Of a stretch of 52,363 nucleotides of DNA, positions 1 to 16,682 are shown piece after piece (the first letter of the stretch is position 1; every line of letters begins with the position of its first letter). Origin of the DNA: a virus (taxonomy: Duplodnaviria; Caudoviricetes); the IMG/VR virus record IMGVR_UViG_3300020461_000009, positions 1 through 52,363 of that record. One strand, 5' to 3'. Position numbers and translations under genes: made by a program. The notes beneath the pieces were generated by a model. That model worked only from the letters and a program-made list of their open reading frames with translations, was not told the origin of the DNA and did no database searches.

Positions 1-13
1 CTCCGAAGTTACC
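1..13. repeat. Left copy of 13-nt terminal direct repeat CTCCGAAGTTACC (probable cos cohesive end or circular overlap)
   Basis: Identical to 52351-52363; the junction lies just upstream of terS on the circle. Confidence 0.85.
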
Positions 14-26
14 CACCGCCACACAG

Positions 27-39
27 CCAGAAAGAACCT
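27..39 (-). other. cosQ-like packaging termination subsite
   Basis: Minus strand AGGTTCTTTCTGG resembles lambda cosQ context GGGTCCTTTCCGG and lies just upstream of the terminal repeat. Confidence 0.6.
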
Positions 40-43
40 ATTT

Positions 44-59
44 TGTATCAACTTGTACA
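44..59. promoter_or_regulatory. NtcA-type box TGTA-N8-TACA
   Basis: TGTATCAACTTGTACA; nearly identical to the box at 1683-1698. Confidence 0.5.
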
Positions 60-86
60 TATAAACTAAGCTTATATATTTTACTT

Positions 87-236
87 AAAATATAAGCTCA
101 ACTTATTATTTCAATTTATAAATATTTTGTAATTTTACTTGACAATTTTTTATACAAGTCTCAAGTCTTAAAATTGTCTCATCATAAGATTGACTAAGTA
201 TTTATACTTAGTCAGTAAAATATAAGCCCAGCTTAT
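87..236. repeat. Cos-proximal repeats: two 20-bp direct repeats around a 10-bp inverted repeat
   Basis: AAAATATAAGCTCAACTTAT (87-106) and AAAATATAAGCCCAGCTTAT (217-236); TGACTAAGTA-ttta-TACTTAGTCA (191-214). Confidence 0.7.
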
Positions 237-476
237 CAATCAGACTTAAATGATAAGCTAAATACTAAAATTTTAAAATATAGCTATTTTTGGGTTAACA
301 GCTTTTTATAAGTACTCTCTAAGTACTCTATAAGGCCGTCAGGCAGGCCTAAATACTCCTAGAGTACTATCACACCCAAAACAAAAAACAAGCCTATTAC
401 AGGCGATTTTAGGCGAGATCGCTTGCTATCACTAGGCTCAGTTTTGTATAATGCTTATACAAAAACAAAAAAGCAT

Positions 477-502
477 AAAAAAAGCAGGCTTTAAGCCTGC
501 TT
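477..502 (-). terminator. Rho-independent terminator of the early transcript
   Basis: AAGCAGGCT-tta-AGCCTGCTT stem with adjacent A-run (U-tract on minus), after ORF 522-830. Confidence 0.8.
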
Positions 503-521
503 AAATCGTTTTAAATAGGGA

Positions 522-830
522 TTAATCGATATAACCCGTATAATATTCGATTATTTCCTTAGACTCTTTTTCGCCAGCTTTTAACTCTTTTTTAGTGAGT
601 TTATTATCAGTATTTGAAGCCATAAATAAATCTATAAAATGCCTTCTTATAGCTGGTTTAATGTCCCTGTAATCCTCGAATAAAGCGAGACTACAAAACA
701 CTATTAAAGCCCTTTTGCCCTCGGCCTTAGTTCTTTTTTGTAGCCTATGGAATGTCCCTGTATAACAAGTAAGCCAGCTTTTAACCTCGCTTGTTATGTC
801 CTCGGGTTTTTCAAACAAATCAGAATACAT
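522..830 (-). CDS. Hypothetical early protein
   Basis: 102-aa ORF with CTATCTTT leader and downstream terminator. Confidence 0.75.
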   Translation of the reverse strand: MYSDLFEKPEDITSEVKSWLTCYTGTFHRLQKRTKAEGKRALIVFCSLALFEDYRDIKPAIRRHFIDLFMASNTDNKLTKKELKAGEKESKEIIEYYTGYID

Positions 831-869
831 AATAAAAAATAAAGATAGAGTACTAATACAGTATTACAT

Positions 870-895
870 AAAAAAAGGGGTTTTAACAACCCCTT
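870..895 (-). terminator. Rho-independent terminator
   Basis: A-run followed by AAGGGGTT...AACCCCTT stem. Confidence 0.65.
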
Positions 896-955
896 AATGT
901 TTATTTAGTTTTAATGTCTATCAAAATAGTAATTGATAGGAGAATAAAAAAGAGA

Positions 956-1384
956 CTAACCATTAATTAACTTTAACCTCAATTCTCTTTTCATTAAGTC
1001 AAGTTCAAACGGCCTGATCTTTTCATACAATCTACCGCCTAGACAGTTAAAGATTTTAGACTCTGATAATATTTCCTCGCCTAGAATATAGGCGGTCATA
1101 TTGGCTATATCTTCAGAGTTAGAAAGATCACTTGAGATCTCGCCAAAATTAAATAACTCATAATCTTTAATTAGATTAATTGCATTTAATATGCTATCCC
1201 CTAACCACTTCTTACAGCGATAATAACCAATTAAGAAATAATCTTCATTAAATAAATAATAATGAAGTTCAGCCCAGTCAATAGTTAACCAGTTAGAGGT
1301 ACAAGGGAAATTAAATAAATCTTCTTGAATTTCCTCTATTTTTTCGATTGCATGATTGATGCAATCATTTTTTAAATCTTGCAT
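956..1384 (-). CDS. Hypothetical acidic phage early protein (LHxxLFNxDY.IGYY...NFGE type)
   Basis: Within ORF 956-1438; start re-called at MQDLK (1384), just after the upstream small ORF. Confidence 0.7.
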   Translation of the reverse strand: MQDLKNDCINHAIEKIEEIQEDLFNFPCTSNWLTIDWAELHYYLFNEDYFLIGYYRCKKWLGDSILNAINLIKDYELFNFGEISSDLSNSEDIANMTAYILGEEILSESKIFNCLGGRLYEKIRPFELDLMKRELRLKLING

Positions 1385-1388
1385 TGAA

Positions 1389-1538
1389 TTAACCTCTAAA
1401 GATAAGTTTAAAAAGTTTAACAATGAAAGAATAATCATTCTTTCTTTGTTGATTTTCTATAAATTCCATATAAGCAATGGAATTAACGTCTTGAATGTCT
1501 AGCCTGTCGGGTAGATAATCGTTAGAAAATAAGTTCAT
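1389..1538 (-). CDS. Small hypothetical protein, 49 aa (MNLFSNDYLPDRLDIQDVNSIAYMEF...LIFRG)
   Basis: Not in ORF track; translated by hand; CTATCTTT leader abuts the ATG; downstream of an HLR1-type promoter. Confidence 0.6.
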   Translation of the reverse strand: MNLFSNDYLPDRLDIQDVNSIAYMEFIENQQRKNDYSFIVKLFKLIFRG

Positions 1539-1567
1539 AAAGATAGTATTTAAGAATACTTTTTTAA

Positions 1568-1625
1568 AATATAAGAAAATACATTAAATTCAATACTATA
1601 TTACTACTTCTTAACAATATGTAAC
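1568..1625 (-). promoter_or_regulatory. Early promoter with HLR1/RpaB-like direct repeat
   Basis: Minus strand GTTACATA-TT-GTTAAGAA (1625-1608), -10 TATATT (1573-1568). Confidence 0.6.
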
Positions 1626-1635
1626 AATTGTAAAA

Positions 1636-1724
1636 TGTATCGTATGATACAGAAATTTTTGTATAATATGCTACACTCATTTTGTATCATCTTGTACCTT
1701 TTTAAGGTTGTAACATTTGATACA
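1636..1724. promoter_or_regulatory. Tandem array of four NtcA-type boxes (GTA-N8-TAC)
   Basis: TGTATCGTATGATACA 1636-1651; TGTATAATATGCTACA 1660-1675; TGTATCATCTTGTACC 1683-1698; TGTAACATTTGATACA 1709-1724. Confidence 0.75.
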
Positions 1725-1737
1725 TTAAAATTTTTGT

Positions 1738-1766
1738 AAAAAAAAATAGGCTTGTAAAAACCTATG
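1738..1766 (-). terminator. Probable terminator
   Basis: A-run followed by ATAGG...CCTAT stem, downstream of ORF 1855-2193. Confidence 0.5.
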
Positions 1767-1776
1767 TGTGAGTTAG

Positions 1777-1854
1777 CGAGTCCCCGAGTCCCCGAGTCCC
1801 CGAGTCCCCGAGTCCCCGAGTCCCCGAGTCCCCGAGTCCCGAGTCCCGAGTCCC
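1777..1854 (+). repeat. Tandem array of 10 CGAGTC-containing units (CGAGTCCC / CGAGTCC)
   Basis: CGAGTC starts at 1777, 1785, 1793, 1801, 1809, 1817, 1825, 1833, 1840 and 1847. Confidence 0.95.
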
Positions 1855-2193
1855 TTATGATTTGTAGATTTGCCCTGATCTAAAAGGCATTAAAATTTCC
1901 TCTTGATAGCGATCATAGATAAACCACTTAAAGTTTTTTTGAAATACACTTAAACCAAAAGCAAACTCCTCTAATAAAGCGTTTAACCTTGATTTAGTTG
2001 TATTAGTTTGCCAGCCGCCATCGAAGATGGTTAATTCTCTTTTAGGGTGGTTATAACTGCCTATAAGGTTATTATGTAGGTAGATTTGTGACTCTATACC
2101 ATCAGCAGAAGTTCTTACTGCTGTGTTACCTTTTGAGAAGTATTTTTTTTGAACCCTGATAGCGTGGTTCATTTCTTTTTCAATTTTTCTCAT
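1855..2193 (-). CDS. Conserved cyanophage-type hypothetical protein (GGWQTNTTKSRLNALL motif)
   Basis: 112-aa ORF; motif recalled from cyanophage early proteins. Confidence 0.75.
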   Translation of the reverse strand: MRKIEKEMNHAIRVQKKYFSKGNTAVRTSADGIESQIYLHNNLIGSYNHPKRELTIFDGGWQTNTTKSRLNALLEEFAFGLSVFQKNFKWFIYDRYQEEILMPFRSGQIYKS

Positions 2194-2218
2194 AACATTT
2201 AAAGATAAAGAATAAAAA

Positions 2219-2280
2219 ATAGGACTTACGTTCTTAGTGTGATTTAGTAAATAGTGTGAGTTAGTTAGTGAACTGCCTAT
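2219..2280 (-). ncRNA. Putative 5'-leader RNA element (GG-CN / GUAAGY-CC internal loop)
   Basis: ATAGG-CA-GTTC...GAAC-GTAAGT-CCTAT, starting at the predicted TSS; same pattern at 4370-4429 and 20855-20900. Confidence 0.45.
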
Positions 2281-2286
2281 GACCTA

Positions 2287-2346
2287 ATATTAGTGCATAT
2301 TTTGGCCTAGTTAGTATTGTTACAGTACTTCTTAATACTTTGTAAC
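2287..2346 (-). promoter_or_regulatory. Early promoter with HLR1/RpaB-like repeat
   Basis: GTTACAAA-GT-ATTAAGAA then GTACTGTAACAATACTAA; -10 TAATAT. Confidence 0.65.
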
Positions 2347-2348
2347 AA

Positions 2349-2558
2349 TTAATAAAGAGAGCATTTTTTTATTCTCTCAGGGAAATAAGTTCCTACAACC
2401 TCATTGTACATAGCCATAAAATTAACTATTTCAGTATCGCTAAATTTTGCAAGTGCATCTTTTTTAGCGTGTTCTAAAGATTGCAACATTAAGTTAGTCT
2501 GCCAATCAGTTAACTTAAAAACTCGCATCTTTTTGATTTGATTGTCTGTAAGGTTCAT
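2349..2558 (-). CDS. Hypothetical early protein
   Basis: Within ORF 2349-2582; start re-called at MNLTD after the CTATCTTT leader. Confidence 0.7.
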   Translation of the reverse strand: MNLTDNQIKKMRVFKLTDWQTNLMLQSLEHAKKDALAKFSDTEIVNFMAMYNEVVGTYFPERIKKCSLY

Positions 2559-2586
2559 AATAAAAGATAGTTGCTTTAACAATTCA

Positions 2587-2646
2587 AATGTACCTTAGAT
2601 TTATAGCTAATTAGTATTGTAACAGTACTTCTTAACATTTTGTAAC
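2587..2646 (-). promoter_or_regulatory. Early promoter with HLR1/RpaB-like repeat
   Basis: GTTACAAA-AT-GTTAAGAA; -10 TACATT; spacing identical to 2287-2346. Confidence 0.7.
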
Positions 2647-2649
2647 AAT

Positions 2650-2678
2650 AAAAAAAGAGCTAATTTTACTTAGCTCTT
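2650..2678 (-). terminator. Rho-independent terminator
   Basis: A-run plus AAGAGCTAA...TTAGCTCTT stem. Confidence 0.75.
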
Positions 2679-2740
2679 ACTAACCCTTTTGTGTGTGTGA
2701 TCGCTTGCCTGCGAGTCTCTCAGCGAGTGCCTGCAAGTCT

Positions 2741-2953
2741 TTAACCCTCTTCTACCAAGTGAGTTAATTTCATAGTTCTCAATCCAGTATCGTCAGTAAA
2801 GAAAAATTTACCTATATGCTGTTTTTGAGCTTTCTCGATAATTGCATGACATCTATCAGCAATTTCTTGATGATTTTCGGCCATACGTCTTTCTACTCTT
2901 TGGTATAAAGTTCGATTATCGAAAATTTCTTGAATGATGTAATAATCGGTCAT
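2741..2953 (-). CDS. Hypothetical protein
   Basis: 70-aa ORF, ATGA overlap with upstream gene. Confidence 0.7.
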   Translation of the reverse strand: MTDYYIIQEIFDNRTLYQRVERRMAENHQEIADRCHAIIEKAQKQHIGKFFFTDDTGLRTMKLTHLVEEG

Positions 2954-3219
2954 TTTCGTACCTCCTCAAAGTTGTAAGTTTTTTCTAAAATGCTCCGCAC
3001 TCTCTCTCTATCTATAGAATCGCCATCCCCCCAAGTCCAAGTAGATTCGGGATTATCTAAAAACAATTCATAATCTTTTACTGCCTTTTTGATGTCAGTT
3101 TTTGTAAGTTTTTGCCCTGTTACCATCTGGTGTAAGGGGTAAATTGCATCATAAGAACCATAAAAGCTATAGACATAATCTATAAATTCTTGTTTTTGTG
3201 AAGTTAAGATAGAAGTCAT
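2950..3219 (-). CDS. Conserved cyanophage-type hypothetical protein (FIDYVYSFYG...GDSIDRERVR)
   Basis: Start re-called at MTSIL after CTATCTTTATC leader. Confidence 0.75.
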   Translation of the reverse strand: MTSILTSQKQEFIDYVYSFYGSYDAIYPLHQMVTGQKLTKTDIKKAVKDYELFLDNPESTWTWGDGDSIDRERVRSILEKTYNFEEVRK

Positions 3220-3247
3220 TGATAAAGATAGTTTGTTGAACACCCTT

Positions 3248-3306
3248 ACTATAGCTGTAATTTTTACTTGTTAGTATTGTTACAGTATTTCTTAACATTC
3301 TGTAAC
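3248..3306 (-). promoter_or_regulatory. Early promoter with HLR1/RpaB-like repeat
   Basis: GTTACAGA-AT-GTTAAGAA; -10 TATAGT. Confidence 0.7.
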
Positions 3307-3309
3307 AAT

Positions 3310-3339
3310 AAAAAAAAGAGGGGTTTATCACTCCCCTCT
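3310..3339 (-). terminator. Rho-independent terminator
   Basis: A-run plus AGAGGGG...CCCCTCT stem. Confidence 0.75.
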
Positions 3340-3397
3340 AGGTACTATCTTTATATGCCACCCTGTTTGCGTGCCTGCGAGTCTCTGCAAGTCTCTA

Positions 3398-3850
3398 CTA
3401 GCCATAAACTAGGGTGTTATAGGTTGTTATCTGCAGTATAGAATCTGCTATAGAAGAATCTATAAGTCCCAAGTCTTTATCCTTAAATGCTTCAAAAACT
3501 TGACCACAATCATAAGTATTAAGATTAGTTTTACCTGAGACTATGTTTTCTATAGCTTTAATAACATCTCCAACTTTTAATTCATGTTTATCTTCTTCAA
3601 TATCTTCTATCCTAATTTTGGTGTCTAGTGTTAAATCTTTTACCCAAGCGCAACAGCCCTCATGCTCATAATCTTGATTAGGTAGGTAGTAGCCATCTTC
3701 GTCTTCTTCAATGTCTCCTACTGTAACGCTATGCGCCCAATATCCTGACCCTTGACCCATAGTGCAAAATAAATCTCTAAGGTCTTGTATGCTAATTTCA
3801 AACCAAAAATTAGCGTGTAATTGAAATTTTTGTTCGGTTGTTTTAGGCAT
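3398..3850 (-). CDS. Hypothetical acidic protein
   Basis: 150-aa ORF, TAATG coupling, GGAGGAG SD. Confidence 0.8.
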   Translation of the reverse strand: MPKTTEQKFQLHANFWFEISIQDLRDLFCTMGQGSGYWAHSVTVGDIEEDEDGYYLPNQDYEHEGCCAWVKDLTLDTKIRIEDIEEDKHELKVGDVIKAIENIVSGKTNLNTYDCGQVFEAFKDKDLGLIDSSIADSILQITTYNTLVYG

Positions 3851-4341
3851 TACTCCTCCTCCTTTTTGTTTTCGTCAATGTAATCTAATAACTTATATGC
3901 CATATCATTAATAACTTCATACTGAGCCAAACCAATAAGCTCAAATATATTTTCTTGACCACTAGCATGATCTGACTCAACAAGGCCACGATTTAGGTTC
4001 TCTCCTAACCATCTAACTCGATCAGCATTGTAAACATCTACAAGACCATCAACAATTTCAAATCTACGATCTTCTACCTCGTCACGATCTTCGCACTCTA
4101 CGAAATCTAAAAGTAAAAAATAGATAGTGCTATATCGCCAATCATTAGGCCACTCTTCATCATGCAATTTATATATGAGATTATCTAGTATCTCTTCTCT
4201 ATCGACATGATTATCATCAATAGTGTAATAAGTTTTACTCATGCCACGATCTACTTGCTCTTGAGTTCTAGTGTTTCTTACAAAAGCGTCAATTAAATAC
4301 TGTGTGTATTCTTGAAATTTAGTTTTAGTTGAATTAGCCAT
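3850..4341 (-). CDS. Acidic protein resembling the T7 Ocr (gp0.3) DNA-mimic anti-restriction family
   Basis: DRDEVEDRRFEIVDGLVDVYNAD...QYEV aligns by eye with Ocr [23 protein letters not shown]...IYEQ; highly acidic; early position. Confidence 0.5.
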   Translation of the reverse strand: MANSTKTKFQEYTQYLIDAFVRNTRTQEQVDRGMSKTYYTIDDNHVDREEILDNLIYKLHDEEWPNDWRYSTIYFLLLDFVECEDRDEVEDRRFEIVDGLVDVYNADRVRWLGENLNRGLVESDHASGQENIFELIGLAQYEVINDMAYKLLDYIDENKKEEE

Positions 4342-4369
4342 AAGCTTAAAGATAGAAAATAAAAGTTAG

Positions 4370-4429
4370 TCAGGACTTACAAGACGTAATTTCTTAACTG
4401 AATTAAGACAACCATAGATCTCGGCCTGA
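4370..4429 (-). ncRNA. Putative 5'-leader RNA element (GG-CN / GUAAGY-CC)
   Basis: TCAGG-CC-GAGAT...GTCTT-GTAAGT-CCTGA immediately after the predicted TSS. Confidence 0.45.
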
Positions 4430-4436
4430 TATTTAT

Positions 4437-4485
4437 ACAATAGCAAATTATAATACTATTGTGGTAGTTTGTTACATTTGTTAAT
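4437..4485 (-). promoter_or_regulatory. Early promoter with HLR1-like repeat
   Basis: ATTAACAA-AT-GTAACAAA; -10 TATTGT (alternative TATAAT at 4452-4447). Confidence 0.5.
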
Positions 4486-4717
4486 ACTCAATACCATATC
4501 CGTCAGTATCTTTAAATTCATTTAAAAACTTTTTTATAACATAAGGATTCAAAGTTTTATTATGAAAGACTTTAATAAATTGAGCAGCCATAAAAATTCT
4601 TTCTTCGTCCCAAATAGTATTATGATTCACATCAAATTTAATTTGATTTCTAATTGCCTGTGAATAATTTAATTCAACAGTTACATCTTCAAATTTTTTT
4701 GTTTTTCTAGTAGCCAT
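4481..4717 (-). CDS. Hypothetical protein
   Basis: 78-aa ORF. Confidence 0.7.
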   Translation of the reverse strand: MATRKTKKFEDVTVELNYSQAIRNQIKFDVNHNTIWDEERIFMAAQFIKVFHNKTLNPYVIKKFLNEFKDTDGYGIEY

Positions 4718-4735
4718 AATAATTGATAAAAATAA

Positions 4736-4799
4736 GGGTTAGTATTATACCTAGAAGTTTTTTCAAGCCCCTTCTAGGCGATTCTGAGAGGGCAATTTT
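4736..4799 (+). repeat. Dispersed ~60-bp element (GGT-N9-ACC...AAGCCCCTTCTAGGCGATTCTGA)
   Basis: Related copies at 362-414, 6347-6399 and, inverted, 25312-25374. Confidence 0.6.
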
Positions 4800-4963
4800 A
4801 TACCTAAAGCGTCATATTCTGCTTTAAGTTGCTCATCACTAATTTCGTGATTAAACCAAGCGTTTTCAATAATGGCTCTTCTTTCGGCTCTTTCTTTTTT
4901 TGTTGATATTCTTTTCATAGGTTTAAAAATAGCGTAAGGAGAGCAGATATAATTGTTTTCCAT
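4763..4963 (-). CDS. Hypothetical protein
   Basis: 66-aa ORF, TAATG coupling; alternative start at 4918. Confidence 0.6.
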   Translation of the reverse strand: MENNYICSPYAIFKPMKRISTKKERAERRAIIENAWFNHEISDEQLKAEYDALGIKLPSQNRLEGA

Positions 4964-5184
4964 TAATGGTCACAATTATGAGCTTTATAAACATCTTCAT
5001 TCCAATGTTCATTATTTTTAAGTATTCCTAGACGAGTCATAATCTGGTCATATACAAACATACCTGATCTACTCATGCGGCCAGAAGTGTAGTCCCAACC
5101 TAAATCTACTAGGTCATCTATTAATTCAGAATTTTTTTTGTATTTATCTGTTTTGATTTTTTTAGGTGCAAATGGATTAGACAT
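4963..5184 (-). CDS. Hypothetical protein
   Basis: 73-aa ORF. Confidence 0.7.
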   Translation of the reverse strand: MSNPFAPKKIKTDKYKKNSELIDDLVDLGWDYTSGRMSRSGMFVYDQIMTRLGILKNNEHWNEDVYKAHNCDH

Positions 5185-5225
5185 AATAATAAAAAATAAG
5201 GTTTACATATAATGGTTAGGGGGTC

Positions 5226-6017
5226 TTATGACCCACCTAACCTTTTGTAGCCACCGCTTGCGACTTGCCTAGATAAGCCTACGCTACCGCCTGCTGATTG
5301 CCCTGCTGAACTACCAGAACCGCCTTGAGTAAAACCAGAACTAGAACCTAATCTAGGATACTTTTGTTTTTTGTATGCTCTGATAATTTCTTTTTCTGTA
5401 TTGTTTTTCTTTTGAACTGCTAGTGCAGATTGGTTAACAGTTTTACTGTCAAGTTGTAATTGTCTACCATTCTCTTCCTCTTCTAATTTCATTTCATAGA
5501 AACGACTAGCAACTTTGTTTGCCCAACCTTTTCTAAAGCTGTTTCTGTGGGCTGAACCCATCATTGCAACTTGAAATGGATCTTCTTTGCAATGCTTTGT
5601 CCAATCATCTTCTAAAGCCTGTAAAAGATAATCTGTATAGATCTCTATTTCTATTTGACTTTTCTTTGATGAGAAGACCTCGAAATGTCTAGTTATCGTA
5701 CGCTTATAACTATATCCGTTATAGTCAGCGTCATCAAAAGCATAAACAATAGAGCCATTATAAAACCTAGCAACTGCACCTAATATTGTTGCTGTAGCAG
5801 GGTCGATGCGCTTGTAAGGTTGTCCATATCTGAATGAGATAGCTTCTATCTCCTCGTCAACAGTAGACATATCTAACTGCTGCTCTAGTTGTTCTTTAGT
5901 AATACCTCTAGCTTGAAGCTGTTGCTCTAGCTTTTCTTCTGCTGCTCTTCTCTCGTTAGGATTAGAAGAAGTTGTTAGTCCTAAAATTTTAGATAGAACT
6001 GATAATGATCTTGCCAT
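5226..6017 (-). CDS. DUF2786-domain protein
   Basis: N-terminal LSKILGLTTSSNPNERRAA matches the DUF2786 pattern; NSFRKGW motif and Gly-rich tail; start re-called at MARSL. Confidence 0.75.
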   Translation of the reverse strand: MARSLSVLSKILGLTTSSNPNERRAAEEKLEQQLQARGITKEQLEQQLDMSTVDEEIEAISFRYGQPYKRIDPATATILGAVARFYNGSIVYAFDDADYNGYSYKRTITRHFEVFSSKKSQIEIEIYTDYLLQALEDDWTKHCKEDPFQVAMMGSAHRNSFRKGWANKVASRFYEMKLEEEENGRQLQLDSKTVNQSALAVQKKNNTEKEIIRAYKKQKYPRLGSSSGFTQGGSGSSAGQSAGGSVGLSRQVASGGYKRLGGS

Positions 6018-6050
6018 GTGATAAAAGATAGTAAAATTGTTTACATATTT

Positions 6051-6099
6051 AATATAGCGCATTATGGTACTAATGCGCTACTTTGTTACATTCTGTAAT
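6051..6099 (-). promoter_or_regulatory. Early promoter with HLR1-like repeat
   Basis: ATTACAGA-AT-GTAACAAA; -10 TATATT; contains the TAGCGCATTA...TAATGCGCTA palindrome. Confidence 0.6.
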
Positions 6100-6101
6100 A
6101 T

Positions 6102-6329
6102 TTAATTATTGGTTTTTTGAAGCTTTGAAAAAAATAAATATTTAAGATTATTGTTCATTAAAAAAGCAAGAATATAACTTCTTACTATTTTTCTTATGCC
6201 TTCTATGTCTGAATAAGTTAATTTATCAGATTCAAAAATATAAGACATTTTATTAAGATCATGTATAAATTCAAAAAATAAATCTTCATTTGAATTGTTG
6301 CATCTTTCTATAAGTTCAGAAGTAATCAT
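6102..6329 (-). CDS. Hypothetical protein
   Basis: 75-aa ORF, very AT-rich. Confidence 0.6.
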   Translation of the reverse strand: MITSELIERCNNSNEDLFFEFIHDLNKMSYIFESDKLTYSDIEGIRKIVRSYILAFLMNNNLKYLFFSKLQKTNN

Positions 6330-6408
6330 AATTTTTCTAAAGATAAGGGTTATAGATATACCTAGAACAACTTAGAGGGCTGTTCTAGGCGATTGTGAGT
6401 GGACTAAA

Positions 6409-6714
6409 TTAGACCACTACATAAATTTTTTCAAGATAAGGACATTCTTGCTTTGTTTCTAAACAAGTAACAACATCAAAGCTATCCATTGACCAACCTT
6501 GAGCATTTGAAATATCAAAAATGTGAACTGTCAACTTTTGATTCTTAGGAAATTTATAAAGATGTTTGTTGCATCTTTTAAAATGTTTCCCTGCTTTGGT
6601 TGATAATACATAATTGTCTTCTGAGCCTTGCGCCCAACAATTACAAAGTTCTCGACCTCCAAAGATAAAAGCAAGCTTAGTTGCTTTTTCTGTTTTCAAT
6701 AAAGTCTTAGACAT
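6409..6714 (-). CDS. Hypothetical protein
   Basis: 101-aa ORF, CTATCTTTT leader. Confidence 0.75.
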   Translation of the reverse strand: MSKTLLKTEKATKLAFIFGGRELCNCWAQGSEDNYVLSTKAGKHFKRCNKHLYKFPKNQKLTVHIFDISNAQGWSMDSFDVVTCLETKQECPYLEKIYVVV

Positions 6715-6742
6715 AAAAGATAGTAAAATAAACTACACACTT

Positions 6743-6791
6743 AATATAGCAACTATTAGTATTAATATGCTACTCTGTAACAATTTGTAAT
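6743..6791 (-). promoter_or_regulatory. Early promoter with HLR1-like repeat
   Basis: ATTACAAA-TT-GTTACAGA; -10 TATATT. Confidence 0.6.
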
Positions 6792-6867
6792 AATTAGTAG
6801 TGGGCTTACATTATTGGAATGTGGCTCAAAAAAGAACTCAGGTATGCCAAATCAAATGCCACTATGC

Positions 6868-7248
6868 CTATGCCTGCGAGTCTTCCGAGTCTTGCAAGTC
6901 TCCCAAGTCTTTAGCATATGGGTCTTTATCAGACCATTCAATATCACCTATTATTTGACCAAGTTGTGATGCTTCTATCTCTACGCAATCGTAATCCCAT
7001 AGATCATTACCATAATTTTTTCTGTTTTCTGGTGTATCGAAATTTTCCCAATTTTCAATAAAACTGGTATTTATCATACCCGAATCATAAAAAATTTCAT
7101 CCCAAGATACTGTTTGGATATGTGGTTCTGGTTCAATAAGAAACTGTGGACTATATCCATAAGCTTCTTCAAAGCTTTCCCAATCTCCACTACATCCAAC
7201 AAATCTCCAATTAAAAAAAGAATGTTTGTTAATAATTGCTTTAGGCAT
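6868..7248 (-). CDS. Acidic hypothetical protein, paralog of 7862-8173
   Basis: Shared IIxxxxFxxWRF...SxDxxxxxxGxIxxxxIEN pattern. Confidence 0.75.
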   Translation of the reverse strand: MPKAIINKHSFFNWRFVGCSGDWESFEEAYGYSPQFLIEPEPHIQTVSWDEIFYDSGMINTSFIENWENFDTPENRKNYGNDLWDYDCVEIEASQLGQIIGDIEWSDKDPYAKDLGDLQDSEDSQA

Positions 7249-7862
7249 TAATCTTCCTCCTTCTTATCAAGAAAAGCTGTATCAATTCCCATATGCGTAA
7301 ACTTTCTAAGGATATGGTCTTTGGTATATTCATCTGGAACATATGACATAAGAATTTGTATAGCTGTTTCATATTTGCTATTTTTTCTTTTGTCAACAGG
7401 TTGTTTAATAATATCCATGTATTCATCATTATTTTGAATACCACCTGCCACAAAGTCCCATTCGTCTTGCATATAAGATACAAAATCTAGGTATTCTTCA
7501 ATATGCTCGAAGTCAGCACCTAACCACTCGAACTCGTTATCCTCAACATAACTATAGAGAGAATCGTAATCCATATCCATAAGTTCCTGTAATAACTTTG
7601 GATTGTTAACTTTAAATTTTTCTACTGTAGTATTCTCAGTAAACGTATAAAATTCTATGCAGTTATAGAATTTATTTTTTTCTTGGCCTTCCTTTAATTT
7701 TCTACCATTATATAAATAAGGTAATTCACAGGTGGCGAGTACATAGCGTAGTGTCTCGTCTGACATCTCATAAAAGTCTTGATTGTTGTAACCTTCTTCT
7801 GGTAAATCAAGATAAACAAATTTTTTAACGATTTGTTCTTGTGTAAATGTTGTTGTTGTCAT
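7248..7862 (-). CDS. Acidic hypothetical protein
   Basis: 204-aa ORF, coupled at both ends. Confidence 0.8.
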   Translation of the reverse strand: MTTTTFTQEQIVKKFVYLDLPEEGYNNQDFYEMSDETLRYVLATCELPYLYNGRKLKEGQEKNKFYNCIEFYTFTENTTVEKFKVNNPKLLQELMDMDYDSLYSYVEDNEFEWLGADFEHIEEYLDFVSYMQDEWDFVAGGIQNNDEYMDIIKQPVDKRKNSKYETAIQILMSYVPDEYTKDHILRKFTHMGIDTAFLDKKEED

Positions 7863-8173
7863 TACTCTTCCTCCTTATTAGTCCATTCGACATAATACCA
7901 ATCTTGTTCTGGATGAGTTTCAATTTCTTCAAAGTCTCCATAATCATCAACAATTCCATATTCATCAATAAATTCCTTAGGAAGTTCATTTTCAATAATA
8001 TGGGATGGAATATAACCAGTATTAGATATTAAATCATCTAAACTAATAGTGGCTACATTTTTTTCCCCTAGTTGTTCTTCAACAATAGTATTTAGAACAT
8101 CATAATCATCAGAATCGGAGAATCTCCAATCAAGAAAAGTTTTTCTATCAATAATAAGTTTTTGTTTAGTCAT
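7862..8173 (-). CDS. Acidic hypothetical protein, paralog of 6868-7248
   Basis: Start re-called at MTKQK after CTATCTTTTATC leader. Confidence 0.75.
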   Translation of the reverse strand: MTKQKLIIDRKTFLDWRFSDSDDYDVLNTIVEEQLGEKNVATISLDDLISNTGYIPSHIIENELPKEFIDEYGIVDDYGDFEEIETHPEQDWYYVEWTNKEEE

Positions 8174-8203
8174 TTGATAAAAGATAGTTGCGTGAACATT
8201 CTT

Positions 8204-8262
8204 ACTATAGCTTATATTTTTAACTATTAGTATTATTACAGTATTTTGTAACAAATTGTTAC
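8204..8262 (-). promoter_or_regulatory. Early promoter with HLR1/RpaB-like repeat
   Basis: GTAACAAT-TT-GTTACAAA; -10 TATAGT. Confidence 0.65.
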
Positions 8263-8263
8263 A

Positions 8264-8959
8264 TTAAAATAATATTCCTTGTCTGTTTATATTATCGTAA
8301 GTATCGTATCGTACATTATCGCCTTTCGGATATGGCTCTATTGCGTAAGTTAACGAGTCTCTCATAGATTTCTTTTGCTTGCGAGTCCCTAAAAAATAAA
8401 AATATCTATGTTTTCTTGGTCGATCTAAAGTATATAATCTATCTCCATACATTTCTCTAAGTTTTAAAATTTTACCCTTTGCGAGTCCTCTGCCTACTTT
8501 GTCCATCAAAGATGCACTATGCAAGTGTTCGAGTCCCTTTACCTTATAGTCAAATCTTTTTGCTGAAAGTCCAGTATAAATAAAATTACAAGCTTGATAA
8601 ATATAACCATGATGATTAAGAGATGTATCTGCATAACTTACAACAACATTTGGTGTCGATAATTGTTTTAGGGTTTGAGATACAAAAAAAGATAAAACAT
8701 TTTTTTCTAAACCTTCATCAACAACTAATCTATTTAACTCTAAAAAAGTATCTTGAAATTTACCTGCAAAAGCATATTTAACTAGAGTATGAGCAACTGG
8801 TCTTCCGTAGCTGCAAATACCAACAATAAATTTATTTTTATATAGTCCATAAGCATAAGAAACACTTGGAATACGTTTTGCATAATGTTTTTGTGTAAAC
8901 CACTCAACATATTCATTTGTACTAAGCTTGCGAACTATATATTGATCTTTAAGTCTCAT
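8264..8959 (-). CDS. mom: Mom-family (GNAT fold) DNA adenine-modification protein
   Basis: KHY, GICSYG, LELNRL and VVSYADxxxxHxGYIYQACNFxYTG motifs match Mu Mom-like proteins. Confidence 0.75.
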   Translation of the reverse strand: MRLKDQYIVRKLSTNEYVEWFTQKHYAKRIPSVSYAYGLYKNKFIVGICSYGRPVAHTLVKYAFAGKFQDTFLELNRLVVDEGLEKNVLSFFVSQTLKQLSTPNVVVSYADTSLNHHGYIYQACNFIYTGLSAKRFDYKVKGLEHLHSASLMDKVGRGLAKGKILKLREMYGDRLYTLDRPRKHRYFYFLGTRKQKKSMRDSLTYAIEPYPKGDNVRYDTYDNINRQGILF

Positions 8960-9273
8960 TAGTCATCATAATAATCATCAATATCAATTTCCTCAAAATC
9001 AGGAATTGTATCTAATGTTTTAAGTATGTAGTCAACATGATTAGCGTTTCCATTCTCGTCATAAACATCAAAATATTCTTTATCAGACCAAGTACTATAT
9101 TCTTCTTCTTCCCAACCCTCCTCTATATATTGGTAAACAAGATGACGTTCAAACGCTTTAATGAGTTGCTCGTCTGAAAACTCTTTATCACTCTTTATGA
9201 CAAGTTTTTCTGTAAACTCTGTACCTGATAAGTTATTACCAAACACTTGCTTGCCTAGGATTAAATAATTCAT
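8959..9273 (-). CDS. Acidic hypothetical protein
   Basis: 104-aa coupled ORF. Confidence 0.75.
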   Translation of the reverse strand: MNYLILGKQVFGNNLSGTEFTEKLVIKSDKEFSDEQLIKAFERHLVYQYIEEGWEEEEYSTWSDKEYFDVYDENGNANHVDYILKTLDTIPDFEEIDIDDYYDD

Positions 9274-9500
9274 TGTGCTACCTCCTCTGGTACTCTTTTC
9301 ATAATTACATCATTTGCAAGTTGCCAAATAATTTGGTGGATAAGTTTACCTTTAAAATCTTCAAAAGGTTGCCAAGAATTATCTTCTAAGTGTTTAAGCT
9401 GTTCATCAATTGTTAATTTAAAAAAGCTATCAGGTACATCATCATCTAAATAATGACCTGATGCCCATTGATAAACTTTTTGCTCATAAGTTAGTGTCAT
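9270..9500 (-). CDS. Hypothetical protein
   Basis: 76-aa ORF with AGGA SD. Confidence 0.75.
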   Translation of the reverse strand: MTLTYEQKVYQWASGHYLDDDVPDSFFKLTIDEQLKHLEDNSWQPFEDFKGKLIHQIIWQLANDVIMKRVPEEVAQ

Positions 9501-9511
9501 TGTTTAATCTC

Positions 9512-9697
9512 CTATGAATTTTGATTAACAATATCCCATGTAGAGATAAAGCTTTCTAGCCAGTAAGCTTGATTACCTGTAAGTCTGTCTTTGGTGTCCG
9601 CACTATGAAGTAAATCACTAGCGCATCTATGTGGAAAATGATTTTTCTTGCACCAAGCTTCAAGTACATCACATAGAAATAACATTTCTCTTGTCAT
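9512..9697 (-). CDS. Hypothetical protein
   Basis: 61-aa ORF, ATGA coupling. Confidence 0.7.
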   Translation of the reverse strand: MTREMLFLCDVLEAWCKKNHFPHRCASDLLHSADTKDRLTGNQAYWLESFISTWDIVNQNS

Positions 9698-9891
9698 TCT
9701 TCCTCCTCCTCGTCATCATAGTCATCTTCTTCTTTGAGTTCTAACTCTCCAATAGATGATTCTCTTATAAGATCAATAACATCAACAAGTGCATCTGAAA
9801 ATTCTTCATTCTCACTTGTATCTGGTGCATCATAACAAGACGCATAATTATAGATAGCTTTATCTATATATTCATAAAGTTTAATCGCCAT
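9694..9891 (-). CDS. Very acidic small protein
   Basis: 65 aa with a poly-D/E tail. Confidence 0.7.
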   Translation of the reverse strand: MAIKLYEYIDKAIYNYASCYDAPDTSENEEFSDALVDVIDLIRESSIGELELKEEDDYDDEEEEE

Positions 9892-10232
9892 TACACTACC
9901 TCCTCCTCACAACAAGGGCATAATGGTGGAACAATAGGCTCTTTTGTTAACATTGCGACTAAAAACATTATTGATGCTTTAGCAGGTGTTAACTCATTGT
10001 TCATAAGCAAAGAAACGTGATTATCAACAAACTCTATTCTGTCTTGAAAAACAGTAACAGCCGTATCTCTGTCGCCTTCTATTTGCATAAATAAGAAACC
10101 CTGCTCATTTGTTTCATTATGCTTTACCCAACAAGGATAAAATTCATCTATATCTAAGTCGGCCATATGCAAGCCATGAGATAAATGATCTATAAAAGTT
10201 TGCACGTTTGATGGTGTTTTTCTTCTTGGCAT
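9891..10232 (-). CDS. Hypothetical protein
   Basis: Start re-called at MPRRK; C-terminal CPCC. Confidence 0.7.
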   Translation of the reverse strand: MPRRKTPSNVQTFIDHLSHGLHMADLDIDEFYPCWVKHNETNEQGFLFMQIEGDRDTAVTVFQDRIEFVDNHVSLLMNNELTPAKASIMFLVAMLTKEPIVPPLCPCCEEEVV

Positions 10233-10234
10233 GA

Positions 10235-10588
10235 TTAATACTCCTCTGGAAATAAAATAACTGTGTTGCAATAATCTTGCTCGGAAAACTGAGTCAAGTC
10301 CATGTCATCTTTCGTAAGACCATAACCTGATGTAATAATCCAAATAGTTTTGTTGTCTTGTAATTTATAAACAGAATGTAATCTGCCACCATTACTACTT
10401 CTAACTACCTGATTGTTAGTCTCTGCGTCTTCTGGTGCTAGATCTCCCCAATCTCCGTTAGCGTGTAGCATAACTTTTGATCTAATGTCTAACTCTCTAG
10501 CGGAATTAAATAATTGATACTCGTTAACTTTCTGAGAGAAAGCTAGTGTACCGAGTAATTTTCTTTTAGGTTTAACTGATGTTGTCAT
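10235..10588 (-). CDS. Conserved plasmid/phage hypothetical protein (HxxGDWGD...IWIIT...TVILFPEEY family)
   Basis: Motifs typical of a widespread mobile-element protein family of unknown function. Confidence 0.75.
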   Translation of the reverse strand: MTTSVKPKRKLLGTLAFSQKVNEYQLFNSARELDIRSKVMLHANGDWGDLAPEDAETNNQVVRSSNGGRLHSVYKLQDNKTIWIITSGYGLTKDDMDLTQFSEQDYCNTVILFPEEY

Positions 10589-10617
10589 TGATAAAGATAA
10601 AGATAAAGTACATTTTT

Positions 10618-10669
10618 AATGTACAGGATAAGTTAGTACTTTTGTAGTACTTTGTTACAAAATCGTAAC
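10618..10669 (-). promoter_or_regulatory. Early promoter with HLR1-like repeat (3-nt spacer)
   Basis: GTTACGAT-TTT-GTAACAAA; -10 TACATT. Confidence 0.5.
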
Positions 10670-10671
10670 AA

Positions 10672-10893
10672 TTAACTTTGGCTATCTTGAAATAACTGGT
10701 CGATAGCTTTTTCTAATAGCTGACTTGCTAGGACACTATGTTGTACAGGGTCAGTTTTAACTCCTCCATGCAAGTCCCAAGCCCTGCCACAAGTAGGGCA
10801 AGCCTTGTATTTGTAACCATTGGCGAGTGCTTTTAGTTTTGTTAATGTAGATTCTTCTACTCGGCAATTAACTTGTTGCCTTTGATTTGACAT
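10672..10893 (-). CDS. Putative ribbon-helix-helix regulator with a CxxC insertion
   Basis: QVNCRVEESTLTKLKALA (strand + helix), CPTC, then SQLLEKAIDQL (helix 2). Confidence 0.5.
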   Translation of the reverse strand: MSNQRQQVNCRVEESTLTKLKALANGYKYKACPTCGRAWDLHGGVKTDPVQHSVLASQLLEKAIDQLFQDSQS

Positions 10894-10918
10894 AGTTGAT
10901 AAAATATAAACTACTGTT

Positions 10919-10947
10919 ATAATACTCGATACTTACTTAGTAGTCAA
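10919..10947 (-). promoter_or_regulatory. Sigma70-type promoter
   Basis: TTGACT-N17-TATTAT. Confidence 0.6.
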
Positions 10948-10948
10948 C

Positions 10949-11728
10949 CTACCAAGTCTTTTTCCATGTATCTTTAATAGCTGTAGCCCAACTTGGTGCG
11001 ATTGACGTTCTGCCAATTTTATCTTGCAAGTCTTTATCTAAAACCTTAACAACGATTCCGTCAGTTGGATAGCGACTAAATATCAACGAGTCTTGCCATT
11101 GACTATGTAACTTCTTAACTCTATTTACAACATCTTTATCTATTTTAATGTAACCACAAACATGAAAACCCCACTTAACAAGTTGTTGTAGGTTAGAGAC
11201 TTCTGTACCCTTGGCATCAAATATTTGAAAAGCACAAAAAGACAAGCCCATGCCTGATGGTTGCTTCTTGCGTAAATGACCTGCTGCGAGTCTCTGTGAT
11301 CTAGCAGGTATAAGCCCTTTGCCATATAACTCTCCTCTAATATCAACAGTACCTTTTGCAATAATATGTTTCGGTAAATCCTCAATCATTCTCATGCAAT
11401 ATGTTTTATCTATACCCTTGCGAGTCCATGCTTTAACTAATAAACCATCTACATATCTAACAGCCATAGCGCAGCCATCTATCTTAGGCTCAACAATTAC
11501 AGGTGTATTTTTTGGTAAATAAGAATACCACTCTGCAAAAGGTAAAGTACCAAGTCCTGATAATACACAACCTTCTTCTACTTTCTTAAGTGCAGGGTGT
11601 TTTGGGTTAGATTTTATAAGTGCTTGTTTTATCGCATCAAATTGTTTGTCAGATATTATTGATCTACCTGCTCTATAAAGATCATTGTGATATAAAAATT
11701 CTTTTGCTAATTCGTCTGCGATTGACAT
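10949..11728 (-). CDS. NAD-dependent DNA ligase, adenylation (Ia + NTase) domain only
   Basis: HNDLY...ISDKQFD (Ia), EPKIDG active Lys, IRGEL, YPTDGIVVKV; ends at WATAIK before the OB fold. Confidence 0.85.
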   Translation of the reverse strand: MSIADELAKEFLYHNDLYRAGRSIISDKQFDAIKQALIKSNPKHPALKKVEEGCVLSGLGTLPFAEWYSYLPKNTPVIVEPKIDGCAMAVRYVDGLLVKAWTRKGIDKTYCMRMIEDLPKHIIAKGTVDIRGELYGKGLIPARSQRLAAGHLRKKQPSGMGLSFCAFQIFDAKGTEVSNLQQLVKWGFHVCGYIKIDKDVVNRVKKLHSQWQDSLIFSRYPTDGIVVKVLDKDLQDKIGRTSIAPSWATAIKDTWKKTW

Positions 11729-11767
11729 AGTTGTGATAAAGATAATAATACTATTATAGTATTAAAC

Positions 11768-12535
11768 CTATTGCTTTGCAAGTCTTTTTATCTCTTCTTT
11801 CCAATATTTGTAAAATCTATCATCTGCAAGTTTTTCTACTCTCATCTTAAATGTTGCCTGTGGCTTTTGTCTTGGAGTTGGTTTAAACATGAACAATGGT
11901 CGCAAAAATGATCTGTACTTACCATCACTCGGTGTTTGTTCTCTGTAGATACCTCTCCTGTATTTACTGCCATCACTTTTAAAAGCTATTACTCTTGCGT
12001 CTTGAATTTTTCCATTTTTTCTTGATCTAGGTGGTGTTACTTTATCTCTTGTTTGACCAAGTGCAATCATAGTATTTGAGTAAGTTGATTTTGTGACCCT
12101 ATTATTTTTTCCCATTTTTATTAATGGATTATCTCTTACTGCAAATGGATAATCACCTTGATTCATATAACTTCTATTTTTTAAAAATTGAGTAAATAAA
12201 GTTCCATATGCTTTTGTTGAACCTCCACCTATAGGGGGATAAAGATATTTGCCTGCTGGATTACCTTTGCCAGTTGTATCTTTAACTCCAACAAATAAAC
12301 TTAATCCACTTTGCTTTGTAAAAGTACTATTTAATGTAAAAAAAACAGCACTTTCAAAAGGTTTAAACCCATGTTTACCTAAATATGTTTGAGCTATTAA
12401 TCCATTTTTACCTTTTAATTCCTTTCCAAGTTTTGTTAAAGTTCTTTTTGCAGCAAATTCAGACTGACTTTTTTCATAAACATTAAGTCTTTTTTTGATT
12501 TTACTGAAGTCATATATTATGGCTGCACTTTTCAT
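11768..12535 (-). CDS. Basic protein, possibly tail-completion/neck-type family
   Basis: AAKRTLT...F...FTLNS pattern recalled from lambda-like phages; located away from the structural block. Confidence 0.4.
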   Translation of the reverse strand: MKSAAIIYDFSKIKKRLNVYEKSQSEFAAKRTLTKLGKELKGKNGLIAQTYLGKHGFKPFESAVFFTLNSTFTKQSGLSLFVGVKDTTGKGNPAGKYLYPPIGGGSTKAYGTLFTQFLKNRSYMNQGDYPFAVRDNPLIKMGKNNRVTKSTYSNTMIALGQTRDKVTPPRSRKNGKIQDARVIAFKSDGSKYRRGIYREQTPSDGKYRSFLRPLFMFKPTPRQKPQATFKMRVEKLADDRFYKYWKEEIKRLAKQ

Positions 12536-12583
12536 ATCGAGTCTTGTTTTTTATATATTAGCAAGTCTTAAAGTGTGAGACTA

Positions 12584-12780
12584 GGTGTTTATTAGGTGTC
12601 CATAGTGTCCTATGTGTGCCGACCTTCCCTATAGAGTTTCCTAAACCCCTATTTTTCCCCTATATACTCCCTATACTCCCTCTCCCTTTACTTAATATAC
12701 TTTATAGTAAAAGGTATAGACACTATAGACACGCTTCATATCGCAAGTCCTGACATTGTTTGCGGTGTCCATAGCGTGTA
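12584..12780. other. Candidate replication origin with iterons
   Basis: GGTGTCCATAG at 12595 and 12764; inverted TATAGACAC copies at 12715 and 12724; CCCTAT repeats 12627-12675; directly downstream of the primase-helicase. Confidence 0.6.
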
Positions 12781-12786
12781 CTAACC

Positions 12787-14946: not shown

Positions 14947-14972
14947 AAAGATAATAGGTATGTTTAAAAGCG

Positions 14973-15329: not shown

Positions 15330-15357
15330 CTAACGATGTAGTTTTTTCCATAATACA

Positions 15358-15627: not shown

Positions 15628-15659
15628 GTTATAAAAATTAGTTAGGTTTGTACAAACCA

Positions 15660-16631: not shown

Positions 16632-16653
16632 CACTTTTGCGATCTGTAACATC

Positions 16654-16682
16654 ACTATATAAATAGAATCTAGTTATGTCAA
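16654..16682 (-). promoter_or_regulatory. Sigma70-type promoter
   Basis: TTGACA-N17-TATAGT. Confidence 0.75.

Follow-up and report, generated by a model that had tools for sequence, protein, structure and literature searches.

Four tandem palindromes of the form GTA-N8-TAC occupy 88 bp near the left end of a marine siphovirus genome, in the gap between the terminator of one early gene and the promoter module of the leftmost gene cassette. NtcA, the global nitrogen regulator of cyanobacteria, is a Crp-family dimer activated by 2-oxoglutarate. We put a probability of roughly 0.55 on the reading that the four boxes are a hub of predicted sites for the NtcA of the host, with predicted LexA sites in relatives, and that this hub controls the terminal cassette.

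The window, by which we mean the whole stretch of DNA analysed, is the 52,363 bp of IMG/VR record IMGVR_UViG_3300020461_000009, with an estimated completeness of 100%. Its two ends share the same 13 bases. A search for relatives of its large terminase (TerL) in IMG/VR gave 545 stretches from 549 pattern matches, and most of the 80 contigs kept from these end about 665 nt upstream of terL, which is the window end. Since contigs of TerL relatives stop at exactly that point, the window ends are real cohesive ends, and the window represents a complete cos siphovirus genome of 52 kb, recovered from marine metagenomes. Pfam identified a lambda-type large terminase (gpA), a lambda-family portal and a protease-capsid fusion, while an integrase was absent from the Pfam scans of 60 window ORFs. 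The DNA has about 30% G+C, and all genes from 522 to 18405 are on the minus strand. The siphovirus lineage is uncultured and common in ocean metagenomes; all listed holders were marine metagenomes, and the left arm was present in part in 20 runs from 8 studies. One of these runs is a metatranscriptome (share 0.06), whose contigs come from a diverged relative.

The sequence and a pattern scan gave the four GTA-N8-TAC sites at the starts that the original prediction had assigned to them, 1637, 1661, 1684 and 1710, with start-to-start spacings of 24, 23 and 26. Box 1 (1636-1651, TGTATCGTATGATACA; core 1637-1650, GTATCGTATGATAC) is a perfect 6+4+6 palindrome of the NtcA type. Box 2 (1660-1675, TGTATAATATGCTACA; core 1661-1674, GTATAATATGCTAC) contains a TATAAT hexamer on the plus strand, box 3 (1683-1698, TGTATCATCTTGTACC; core 1684-1697, GTATCATCTTGTAC) is palindromic at GTA and TAC only, and box 4 (1709-1724, TGTAACATTTGATACA; core 1710-1723, GTAACATTTGATAC) completes the array. 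As predicted, two boxes, 1 and 4, have the extended form TGTAWC-N4-GATACA. The predicted fifth copy beside cos was also recovered: box 5 (44-59, TGTATCAACTTGTACA), with GTA-N8-TAC at 45-58, lies 44 nt from the left cohesive end and is identical to box 3 at 14/16 positions. The full TGTA...TACA form, which is optimal for an NtcA site, is present in four of these five boxes. An alternative reading of boxes 3 and 5 is as direct repeats (TGTATC-N4-TGTAC). A sixth GTA-N8-TAC site (1546-1559, GTATTTAAGAATAC) lies 8-21 nt upstream of the ATG at 1538 and could be a palindrome or hairpin of the leader, or else a site in a repressor position. The pattern scan found a further GTA-N8-TAC at 2325.

The GTA-N8-TAC motif fixes six bases only, and its frequency was compared with chance at several scales. 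Genome-wide, 20 sites were observed against 12.84 ± 3.66 in 100 shuffles, and 20 was reached in 4 of the 100. Because this excess is weak, the signal is the clustering; the first 2.4 kb holds 7 of the 20 sites. For the longer TGTA-N8-TACA, five sites were observed against 1.68 expected, one shuffle in 100 reaching five, and four of the five lie at 44-1724. Clustering itself was assessed by first-order Markov simulations of 52,363 bp each. Four sites within any 90 bp arose in 0/400 simulations of a whole-window model and in 0/400 of an AT-rich non-coding model, so the claim that four abutting boxes in 90 bp are improbable by chance is borne out by 0/800 simulations; three sites within 90 bp arose once in 400 under each model. 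In an empirical control of 325 loci (2.29 Mb), at least three sites in 114 bp were seen at only four loci, all of which are relatives with the same module.

The boxes stand in a well-defined place. On the minus strand the order is ORF 2193-1855, a repeat array, a terminator, the four boxes, the promoter module, a leader and the ATG at 1538. The upstream gene, ORF 1855-2193 (minus strand, 112 aa, phrog_554), is followed directly after its stop codon by ten copies of CGAGTCCC (1777-1854, minus strand; GGGGACUC repeats on the mRNA strand), for which relatives have the variants CGAGTCTC and CGAGTCTCAG/CATAG. Its intrinsic terminator (1738-1765, minus strand) consists of a stem-loop at 1746-1765 with an 8-bp stem and a U-run at 1745-1738 (U8), and the stem covaries among relatives, with ATAGGC/GCCTAT in some and ATAAGC/GCTTAT in others. 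The boxes occupy the 110-bp gap from this terminator to the promoter of the leftmost cassette. That promoter module (1598-1626, minus strand) is composed of GTTACA (1625-1620), 16 nt and TAATAT (1603-1598). Similar modules occur at about 2313-2350, 2619-2650, 3278-3310, 6760-6790, 8230-8262 and 10630-10670, and at least six other early genes are preceded by such a module, which abuts the preceding terminator directly; the insertion of about 100 bp of boxes between terminator and module is found at the terminal cassette only. A scan for consensus promoters was not discriminating (36 sites against 31.6 expected), and Rfam gave no window match at the gathering score, with four weak chance-level matches in 1-2600.

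The promoter module contains a candidate HLR1 element. HLR1 is described as two (G/T)TTACA(T/A)(T/A) octamers 2 nt apart (available part of bioRxiv 10.1101/443713), and GTTACATA-TT-GTTAAGAA (1609-1626, minus strand) matches this consensus at 14/16 positions by eye. The second octamer of the other modules is consistently GTTAAGAA. Of the earlier statement that the boxes lie between an HLR1 promoter and a CGAGTC array, the position upstream of the terminal-cassette promoter module stands, while the HLR1 assignment is a 14/16 match by eye; the proposed integration with light through RpaB, which had that match as its sole basis, was overstated.

The terminal cassette (1538-522) is on the minus strand. 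Its first genes are ORF 1389-1538 (49 aa) and ORF 956-1438 (160 aa, phrog_10208, a family of unknown function). ORF 522-830 (102 aa, no family) is the last gene of the left arm and is flanked by terminator-like hairpins at 875-895 and 482-502. Pfam and PHROGs assigned the terminal-cassette genes only to families of unknown function, and a protein atlas returned nothing for ORF 956-1438 or ORF 522-830.

Looking for the array in related phages, as had been suggested, yielded ten related contigs with the module (L095, L165, L178, L218, L222, L241, L305, L306, L310 and L317), giving 11 sequences with the window. L095 spans the cos junction, and L165 and L178 begin at the same left end as the window. 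L218, L222 and L241 are three relatives among at least 120 metagenome stretches that match the GAGTC-array pattern, and L305, L306, L310 and L317 come from a set of 33 loci, in which L303 and L309 are contigs of L165 and L178. Further relatives beyond these certainly exist. Exact-pattern scans of IMG/VR returned two stretches for the array pattern, one for a leader 24-mer and three for the left-end pattern. The module was absent from loci found through its flanking genes, namely two distant loci with ORF 956-1438 and 80 distant loci with ORF 1855-2193, the latter mostly on long contigs.

Each of the ten module-bearing relatives has between one and four exact GTA-N8-TAC sites in the gap between terminator and promoter module. 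The window, L095 and L310 have four exact boxes in the gap and no other sites. L165 and L222 have three exact boxes and a LexA-consensus box at the place of box 4, and L178 has two exact boxes with a LexA box between them. Boxes 1 and 2 are missing in five relatives (L218, L241, L305, L306 and L317), which keep one exact box and the near-site TGTATCATTTATCACA; L305 and L306 have a LexA box in addition. Relatives share a conserved distance between the terminator and box 4 or the LexA box.

Where the boxes can be aligned, substitutions avoid the half-sites. In L095, L165, L222 and L310 the half-sites of box 1 are unchanged and changes are confined to the spacer. Box 2 is identical in L095, L165 and L310 and reads TGTAAAATTTGCTACA in L222, the left half of box 3 (TTGTATCA) is invariant in 7/7 sequences of alignment A2, and box 4 is kept in L095 and L310 (TGTATCATTTGATACA). 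L165, L178 and L306 retain box 5 with an altered spacer. At the site 1546-1559, L222 and L310 have the window sequence, and L095 and L165 have GTAATTAATATTAC, with compensatory inner changes. Across boxes 1-3 of the window, L095, L165, L222 and L310, no half-site column varied (0/18), against 17/45 neighbouring columns (7/24 in the spacers and 10/21 between boxes), and 1/6 of the flanking T/A columns varied. The one-sided Fisher p of 0.0011 is indicative only, as these five related sequences were chosen because they could be aligned and are no independent lineages. In four sequences, 14/69 columns of the box region varied, against 34/92 in the adjacent leader and promoter. The conservation of the GTA and TAC half-sites that had been expected of relatives was thus found.

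The genes flanking the module differ between relatives on both sides. Downstream of it, L095, L165 and L178 encode a 95-aa DUF3574 protein in place of the 49-aa and 160-aa ORFs of the window; this protein has a weak, sub-threshold match to S-adenosylmethionine lyase. As the module is kept while its neighbours differ, we regard it as a conserved control region before an exchangeable cassette. Three complete distant relatives, G001-G003 (TerL 75-80% identical), have no cluster. Their whole genomes contain 5, 4 and 15 sites, compared with 22, 12 and 14 occurrences of the reversed control pattern, and 0, 0 and 1 sites fall in the left 4 kb. The array is therefore not essential to the lineage.

The second dyad found in relatives, AGTAC-N4-GTACT, points to the host. 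Six relatives carry a perfect match to the 14-bp cyanobacterial LexA consensus, AGTACWNWTGTACT or RGTACNNNDGTWCB (Li, Xu and Su 2010, PMC3091678), and their boxes are near-identical to the Prochlorococcus recA boxes tabulated in that paper. A LexA box stands at the place of box 4 in L165 and L222, and L095 has one at the place of box 5. In total there are 11 perfect matches in seven loci, representing the six different relatives (four in L095, two in L310 and one each in L222, L303, L305, L306 and L309), all in the left arm, and none in the other 318 loci. None was found in 516 kb of cyanomyovirus-like loci or in other TerL relatives. The window contains no perfect LexA box either; the best match there, at 10635-10648, has one mismatch. 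The four boxes of L095 and the two of L310 lie in an ORF-free region beside cos with no gene directly downstream. After circularisation this region would be about 200-330 bp upstream of the terminase and late operon, on the same strand.

LexA motifs are group-specific and stable within groups, and those of Bacteroidetes, alphaproteobacteria and E. coli all differ (PMC8565304, available part); the LexA-type dyad in relatives is the most diagnostic evidence on the host. Homology agrees for the early genes. DNA-level matches of window positions 1-6000 comprise 39 phage records (30 Synechococcus, 5 'Cyanophage', 3 Prochlorococcus and 1 'Marine'), and 381 of the 416 phage records with homologues of ORF 1855-2193 are Synechococcus or Prochlorococcus phages or cyanophages. 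The capsid fusion has its best full-length matches in the Synechococcus siphoviruses S-CBS1 and S-CBS3 (44-45% identity). For TerL, roseophages are the closest cultured phages, at 45% identity, and a GTDB search with TerL gave 12 loci of at most 55% identity, none of them cyanobacterial and the best in a Proteobacteria MAG. Perfect cyanobacterial-type LexA boxes in relatives, together with cyanophage homologues of the early genes, make a cyanobacterium the probable host, as the original prediction had assumed, and point to a picocyanobacterium.

From these sequence features we infer which host and binding protein take part, which promoter is controlled and with what sign, as follows. When 2-oxoglutarate is high, in nitrogen-limited and possibly in infected cells, host NtcA would occupy the array. 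Occupancy would modulate transcription that starts in the gap, most probably that of the leftward cassette 1538-522, so that the genes regulated would be a variable, moron-like set. Sister phages with LexA boxes at some of the same positions make the region look like a hub that reads host physiology, and the exchange of an NtcA-type for a LexA-type box at the places of boxes 4 and 5 is easier to understand if both serve host factors. The phage itself offers no obvious binder: the TIGR03697 profile found no Crp- or NtcA-like phage protein, and none of the 60 window ORFs matched a Pfam family of dimeric repressors, be it CI/Cro-type, Crp-type or other. The single clear helix-turn-helix among these ORFs is HTH_17 (ORF 20266-20457), which is a poor candidate because it is kept, at 69-77% identity, in 3/3 complete relatives without arrays.

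Relative to GTTACA-N16-TAATAT, the best leftward core promoter, the boxes are centred at about −52.5, −76.5, −99.5 and −125.5, with no box at the canonical −41.5 position, and the TAATAT −10 hexamer is not kept in L165. The proposal of nitrogen-status control of the terminal operon is thus strengthened by the non-random boxes upstream of the cassette promoter module, and weakened by the empty −41.5 position. On the plus strand, TAN3T hexamers follow boxes 1, 2 and 3 at 21, 20 and 23 nt (TACACT, TACCTT and TACATT); these carry little information, since each is simply the TAC of the next box. On the minus strand there is a TAN3T for box 2 only (TACATT, 21 nt).

Those plus-strand hexamers would acquire a role if boxes 1-3 were class II sites of rightward NtcA-dependent promoters, each borrowing its −10 from the next box and together producing a transcript, non-coding or antisense, that crosses the CGAGTCCC array and is antisense to ORF 1855-2193; the LexA boxes of relatives would be the repressor site of that promoter. 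The 20-23 nt spacing of the hexamers is the canonical NtcA spacing, about 22 nt (PMC6316151, available part), L222 has NtcA box 3, a LexA box and a perfect TATAAT 23 nt after the box in that order, L178 repeats the order with an NtcA box, a LexA box and TATCAT, and the conserved spacing between the terminator and box 4 or the LexA box would suit such a layout. Yet these hexamers arise from the box spacing itself, a TAN3T is missing from the equivalent position in L165, and neither an ORF nor an Rfam family lies downstream on the plus strand, which makes rightward promoters distinctly unlikely. We also think it unlikely that the boxes are operators of a phage-encoded dimeric protein, comparable to lambda OR1-OR3, in which host NtcA plays no part. 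Four 16-bp dyads spaced by 24, 23 and 26 do resemble cooperatively bound tandem operators, a further site lies near cos, and the many small early ORFs without a family leave room for a novel phage binder. Against this, the profile and Pfam searches turned up no such protein, the HTH_17 protein persists in relatives with no boxes, the module has non-conserved genes on either side and both flanks are transcribed in the same direction instead of divergently; moreover, exchange for host-type LexA boxes would not be tolerable in a phage operator set.

Two further accounts dispense with regulation of the adjacent promoter. In one, which the original prediction had offered as a decoy for NtcA, replicating phage genomes titrate NtcA (LexA in relatives) and so blunt or trigger the host regulons, without targeting the adjacent promoter. 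Several high-quality sites per genome multiplied by replication, the LexA boxes of L095 and L310 beside cos, and the free turnover of box number and position among relatives would all fit a sponge. However, the main array has a fixed place between terminator and promoter module in 11/11 sequences, there are only 1-6 copies per genome and three relatives manage without an array; the sponge is not directly supported and we hold it to be highly improbable. In the other, the boxes are neutral, function-free AT-rich palindromes conserved through close kinship alone. The motif is short, the DNA has a low G+C content, and identity among relatives reaches about 90% across the region. These points are outweighed by the simulations, by the invariant half-site columns beside variable neighbours, by the lower variability of the box region than of the adjacent leader and promoter, and by the diverged type II relatives, in which the gap is filled by boxes of different sequence, so that neutrality is extremely improbable. 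Control by host NtcA through the terminal-cassette promoter remains our preferred reading.

Several other candidates were considered and rejected. A replication origin with iterons does not agree with units that share GTA and TAC only, or with primase and helicase genes 11 kb away. RNA hairpins are not indicated, as box 1 alone is a perfect dyad and the inner positions show no covariation. A role as cosQ or terminase sites is contradicted by L095 (TerL 97% identical), which has a different box at the cos-proximal place. The CTG/CAG ends of gamma-proteobacterial LexA boxes are missing, and a simple Pho box (CTTA-N7-CTTA) is absent.

A broader interpretation, which we consider very unlikely, is that an abundant lineage without a recognisable repressor or integrase has handed its developmental decisions to the few global regulators of its host. 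The NtcA and LexA clusters before the terminal cassette and beside cos would then form a host-state switch by which nitrogen status and DNA damage delay or release the development of the phage. If true, such a switch would give a molecular basis for nutrient-dependent pseudolysogeny in picocyanobacteria. More generally, the array bears on how phages time their infections while the host is chronically short of nitrogen and exposed to UV stress every day. Transcription factors are very few in marine picocyanobacteria and include NtcA, LexA and RpaB (bioRxiv 10.64898/2026.04.15.718746, available part). The array is a compact, testable cis-element of 88 bp and four sites, with natural variants in which single boxes are swapped for LexA boxes; if NtcA and LexA bind, nature has with these swaps already set up the experiments for studying how phages rewire the sensing of their hosts. 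For a phage group with no cultured member, the LexA boxes also serve as a marker of host lineage.

The comparison with published systems draws on the available parts of the papers cited. As early as 2010, NtcA sites had been predicted in cyanophages (1-16 per genome), along with the idea that phages exploit the NtcA of the host (Sullivan et al. 2010, PMC3037559). The array, named earlier as the best candidate for an undescribed system, is therefore not one; duplicate and triplicate NtcA sites upstream of nirA have also been reported (Gazitua et al. 2020, PMC8115048). The marine cyanophage sites share with the window the GTA-N8-TAC dyad, the intergenic location and the logic of exploiting nitrogen stress through 2-oxoglutarate and NtcA. 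They differ in being dispersed over the roughly 170-250 kb genomes of T4-like myoviruses, whereas the window has four abutting sites in 88 bp before a variable cassette of a 52-kb lambda-like siphovirus and, unlike in the T4-like cases, its sister phages have boxes exchanged for LexA boxes. GTA-N8-TAC is the NtcA site, for which activating positions upstream of −41.5 (e.g. −77.5) and repressing positions near the core promoter (−30.5, −28.5 and −7.5) are known (PMC6316151). The window thus resembles NtcA class II promoters in its dyad, but has no box that can be put at −41.5 of any supported promoter.

A related arrangement is that of Synechocystis nirA, where an NtcA box adjoins or overlaps HLR1 and co-stimulation by NtcA and RpaB has been proposed; the same paper mentions HLR1 motifs in cyanophage genomes (Riediger et al. 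2019, PMC6525291). In the window an HLR1-like repeat over the −35 region likewise has an NtcA-type box immediately upstream, but there is a gap of about 10 nt between box 1 and the repeat, there are four boxes instead of one, and the repeat is a 14/16 match only. With respect to cyanobacterial LexA boxes, the relatives carry the perfect consensus and the window does not; among the listed papers on cyanophage LexA and SOS, taken by titles and the openings of abstracts, we found no description of LexA boxes in cyanophages. The tandem arrangement itself recalls the lambda operators. OR and OL are tandem operators of a temperate phage, with dyads of about 16 bp and centre spacings of 23-26 bp; the dyads and spacing of the window are similar, but neither a repressor nor divergent promoters nor an integrase were found there. 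Host LexA is used as a regulator by Bacillus phage GIL01 and by CTX-phi. What appears to be new is the tight array of four sites (the supplementary tables of PMC3037559 and PMC8115048 aside), the presence of an NtcA-type array in a lambda-like siphovirus lineage, before an exchangeable terminal cassette, and the interchange of NtcA-type boxes with perfect LexA boxes.

Immediately past the stop codon of the 112-aa ORF upstream of the boxes (1855–2193, minus strand) lies an array of ten copies of CGAGTCCC, at positions 1777–1854 of the window. A GANTC site is present in every unit. The mRNA strand of the array consists of GGGGACUC repeats, which match a G-quadruplex-type pattern, and strong folding was predicted for this repeat RNA (z = −6.1). 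Equivalent arrays are found in three related contigs that carry the same module (L178, L306 and L310), with units in relatives reading CGAGTCTC or CGAGTCTCAG/CATAG. Since the relatives retain an array built from other units, it is the repeat itself that is maintained, and not its exact sequence.

The sequence immediately before the ATG at 1538 (window 1539–1549) was AAAGATAGTA on the plus strand, or TACTATCTTT on the mRNA strand, and was invariant in all seven rows of the alignment of the module region. The same AAAGATAGTA lies upstream of other start codons in the window (~831–850). No Shine–Dalgarno sequence was present ahead of the ATG at this leader, and AAAGATAGTA/TACTATCTTT may serve as a phage-specific signal, either for translation initiation or in the leader.

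A Mom-family protein in the window (8264–8959, minus strand; Pfam PF25680, E = 1e−35) suggests DNA base modification by the phage. In L165, L095 and L178 the module is followed by a cargo gene (1046–1333 in L165, minus strand) for a DUF3574 protein of 95 aa, which weakly matches the S-adenosylmethionine lyase family (E = 0.0014, under the cut-off); this protein could have an anti-restriction function.

The first and last 13 bases of the window (1–13 and 52351–52363) are identical (CTCCGAAGTTACC) and the same right end terminates the contigs of many relatives, which is consistent with a 13-nt cohesive end. Perfect boxes of the cyanobacterial LexA consensus occur in related contigs: at 1511 in L165, 1625 in L178 and 785 in L222, in L305 and L306, and as tandems of four in L095 (1365–1499) and two in L310 (129–212, reverse complement), within an ORF-free region adjacent to cos. 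On the circularised genome, this region of L095 and L310 falls ~200–330 bp upstream of, and on the same strand as, the gene for the small terminase subunit. In the complete, more distant relatives G001 and G002, GTA-N8-TAC was under-represented over the whole record (5 versus 22 and 4 versus 12 for the reversed control pattern). The left 4 kb of G001 has a G+C content of just 24% and holds one LexA-like box with one mismatch (3070–3083).

A near-consensus sigma-70 promoter (TTGACA, 17 nt, TAATAT, overlapping TATAAT; 18410–18440, plus strand) stands at the transcription divergence point, upstream of the exonuclease (DUF3799)/RecT/HTH_17 block. The early genes have a recurrent minus-strand promoter module, TTGTTACA-N4-GTTAAGAA-GTAC..., immediately behind terminators (~2313–2350, 2619–2650, 3278–3310, 6760–6790, 8230–8262, 10630–10670 and 1598–1626). 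Dyads of a third type, AGTAC-N7-GTACT (such as AGTACTCTCTAAGTACT), with a spacing unlike the LexA box, occur repeatedly in the left non-coding region (307–334 and 355–368; ~310–330 in L165) and also in one promoter module (10635–10659). The promoter module resembles HLR1, the RpaB site; its second octamer, however, is always GTTAAGAA.
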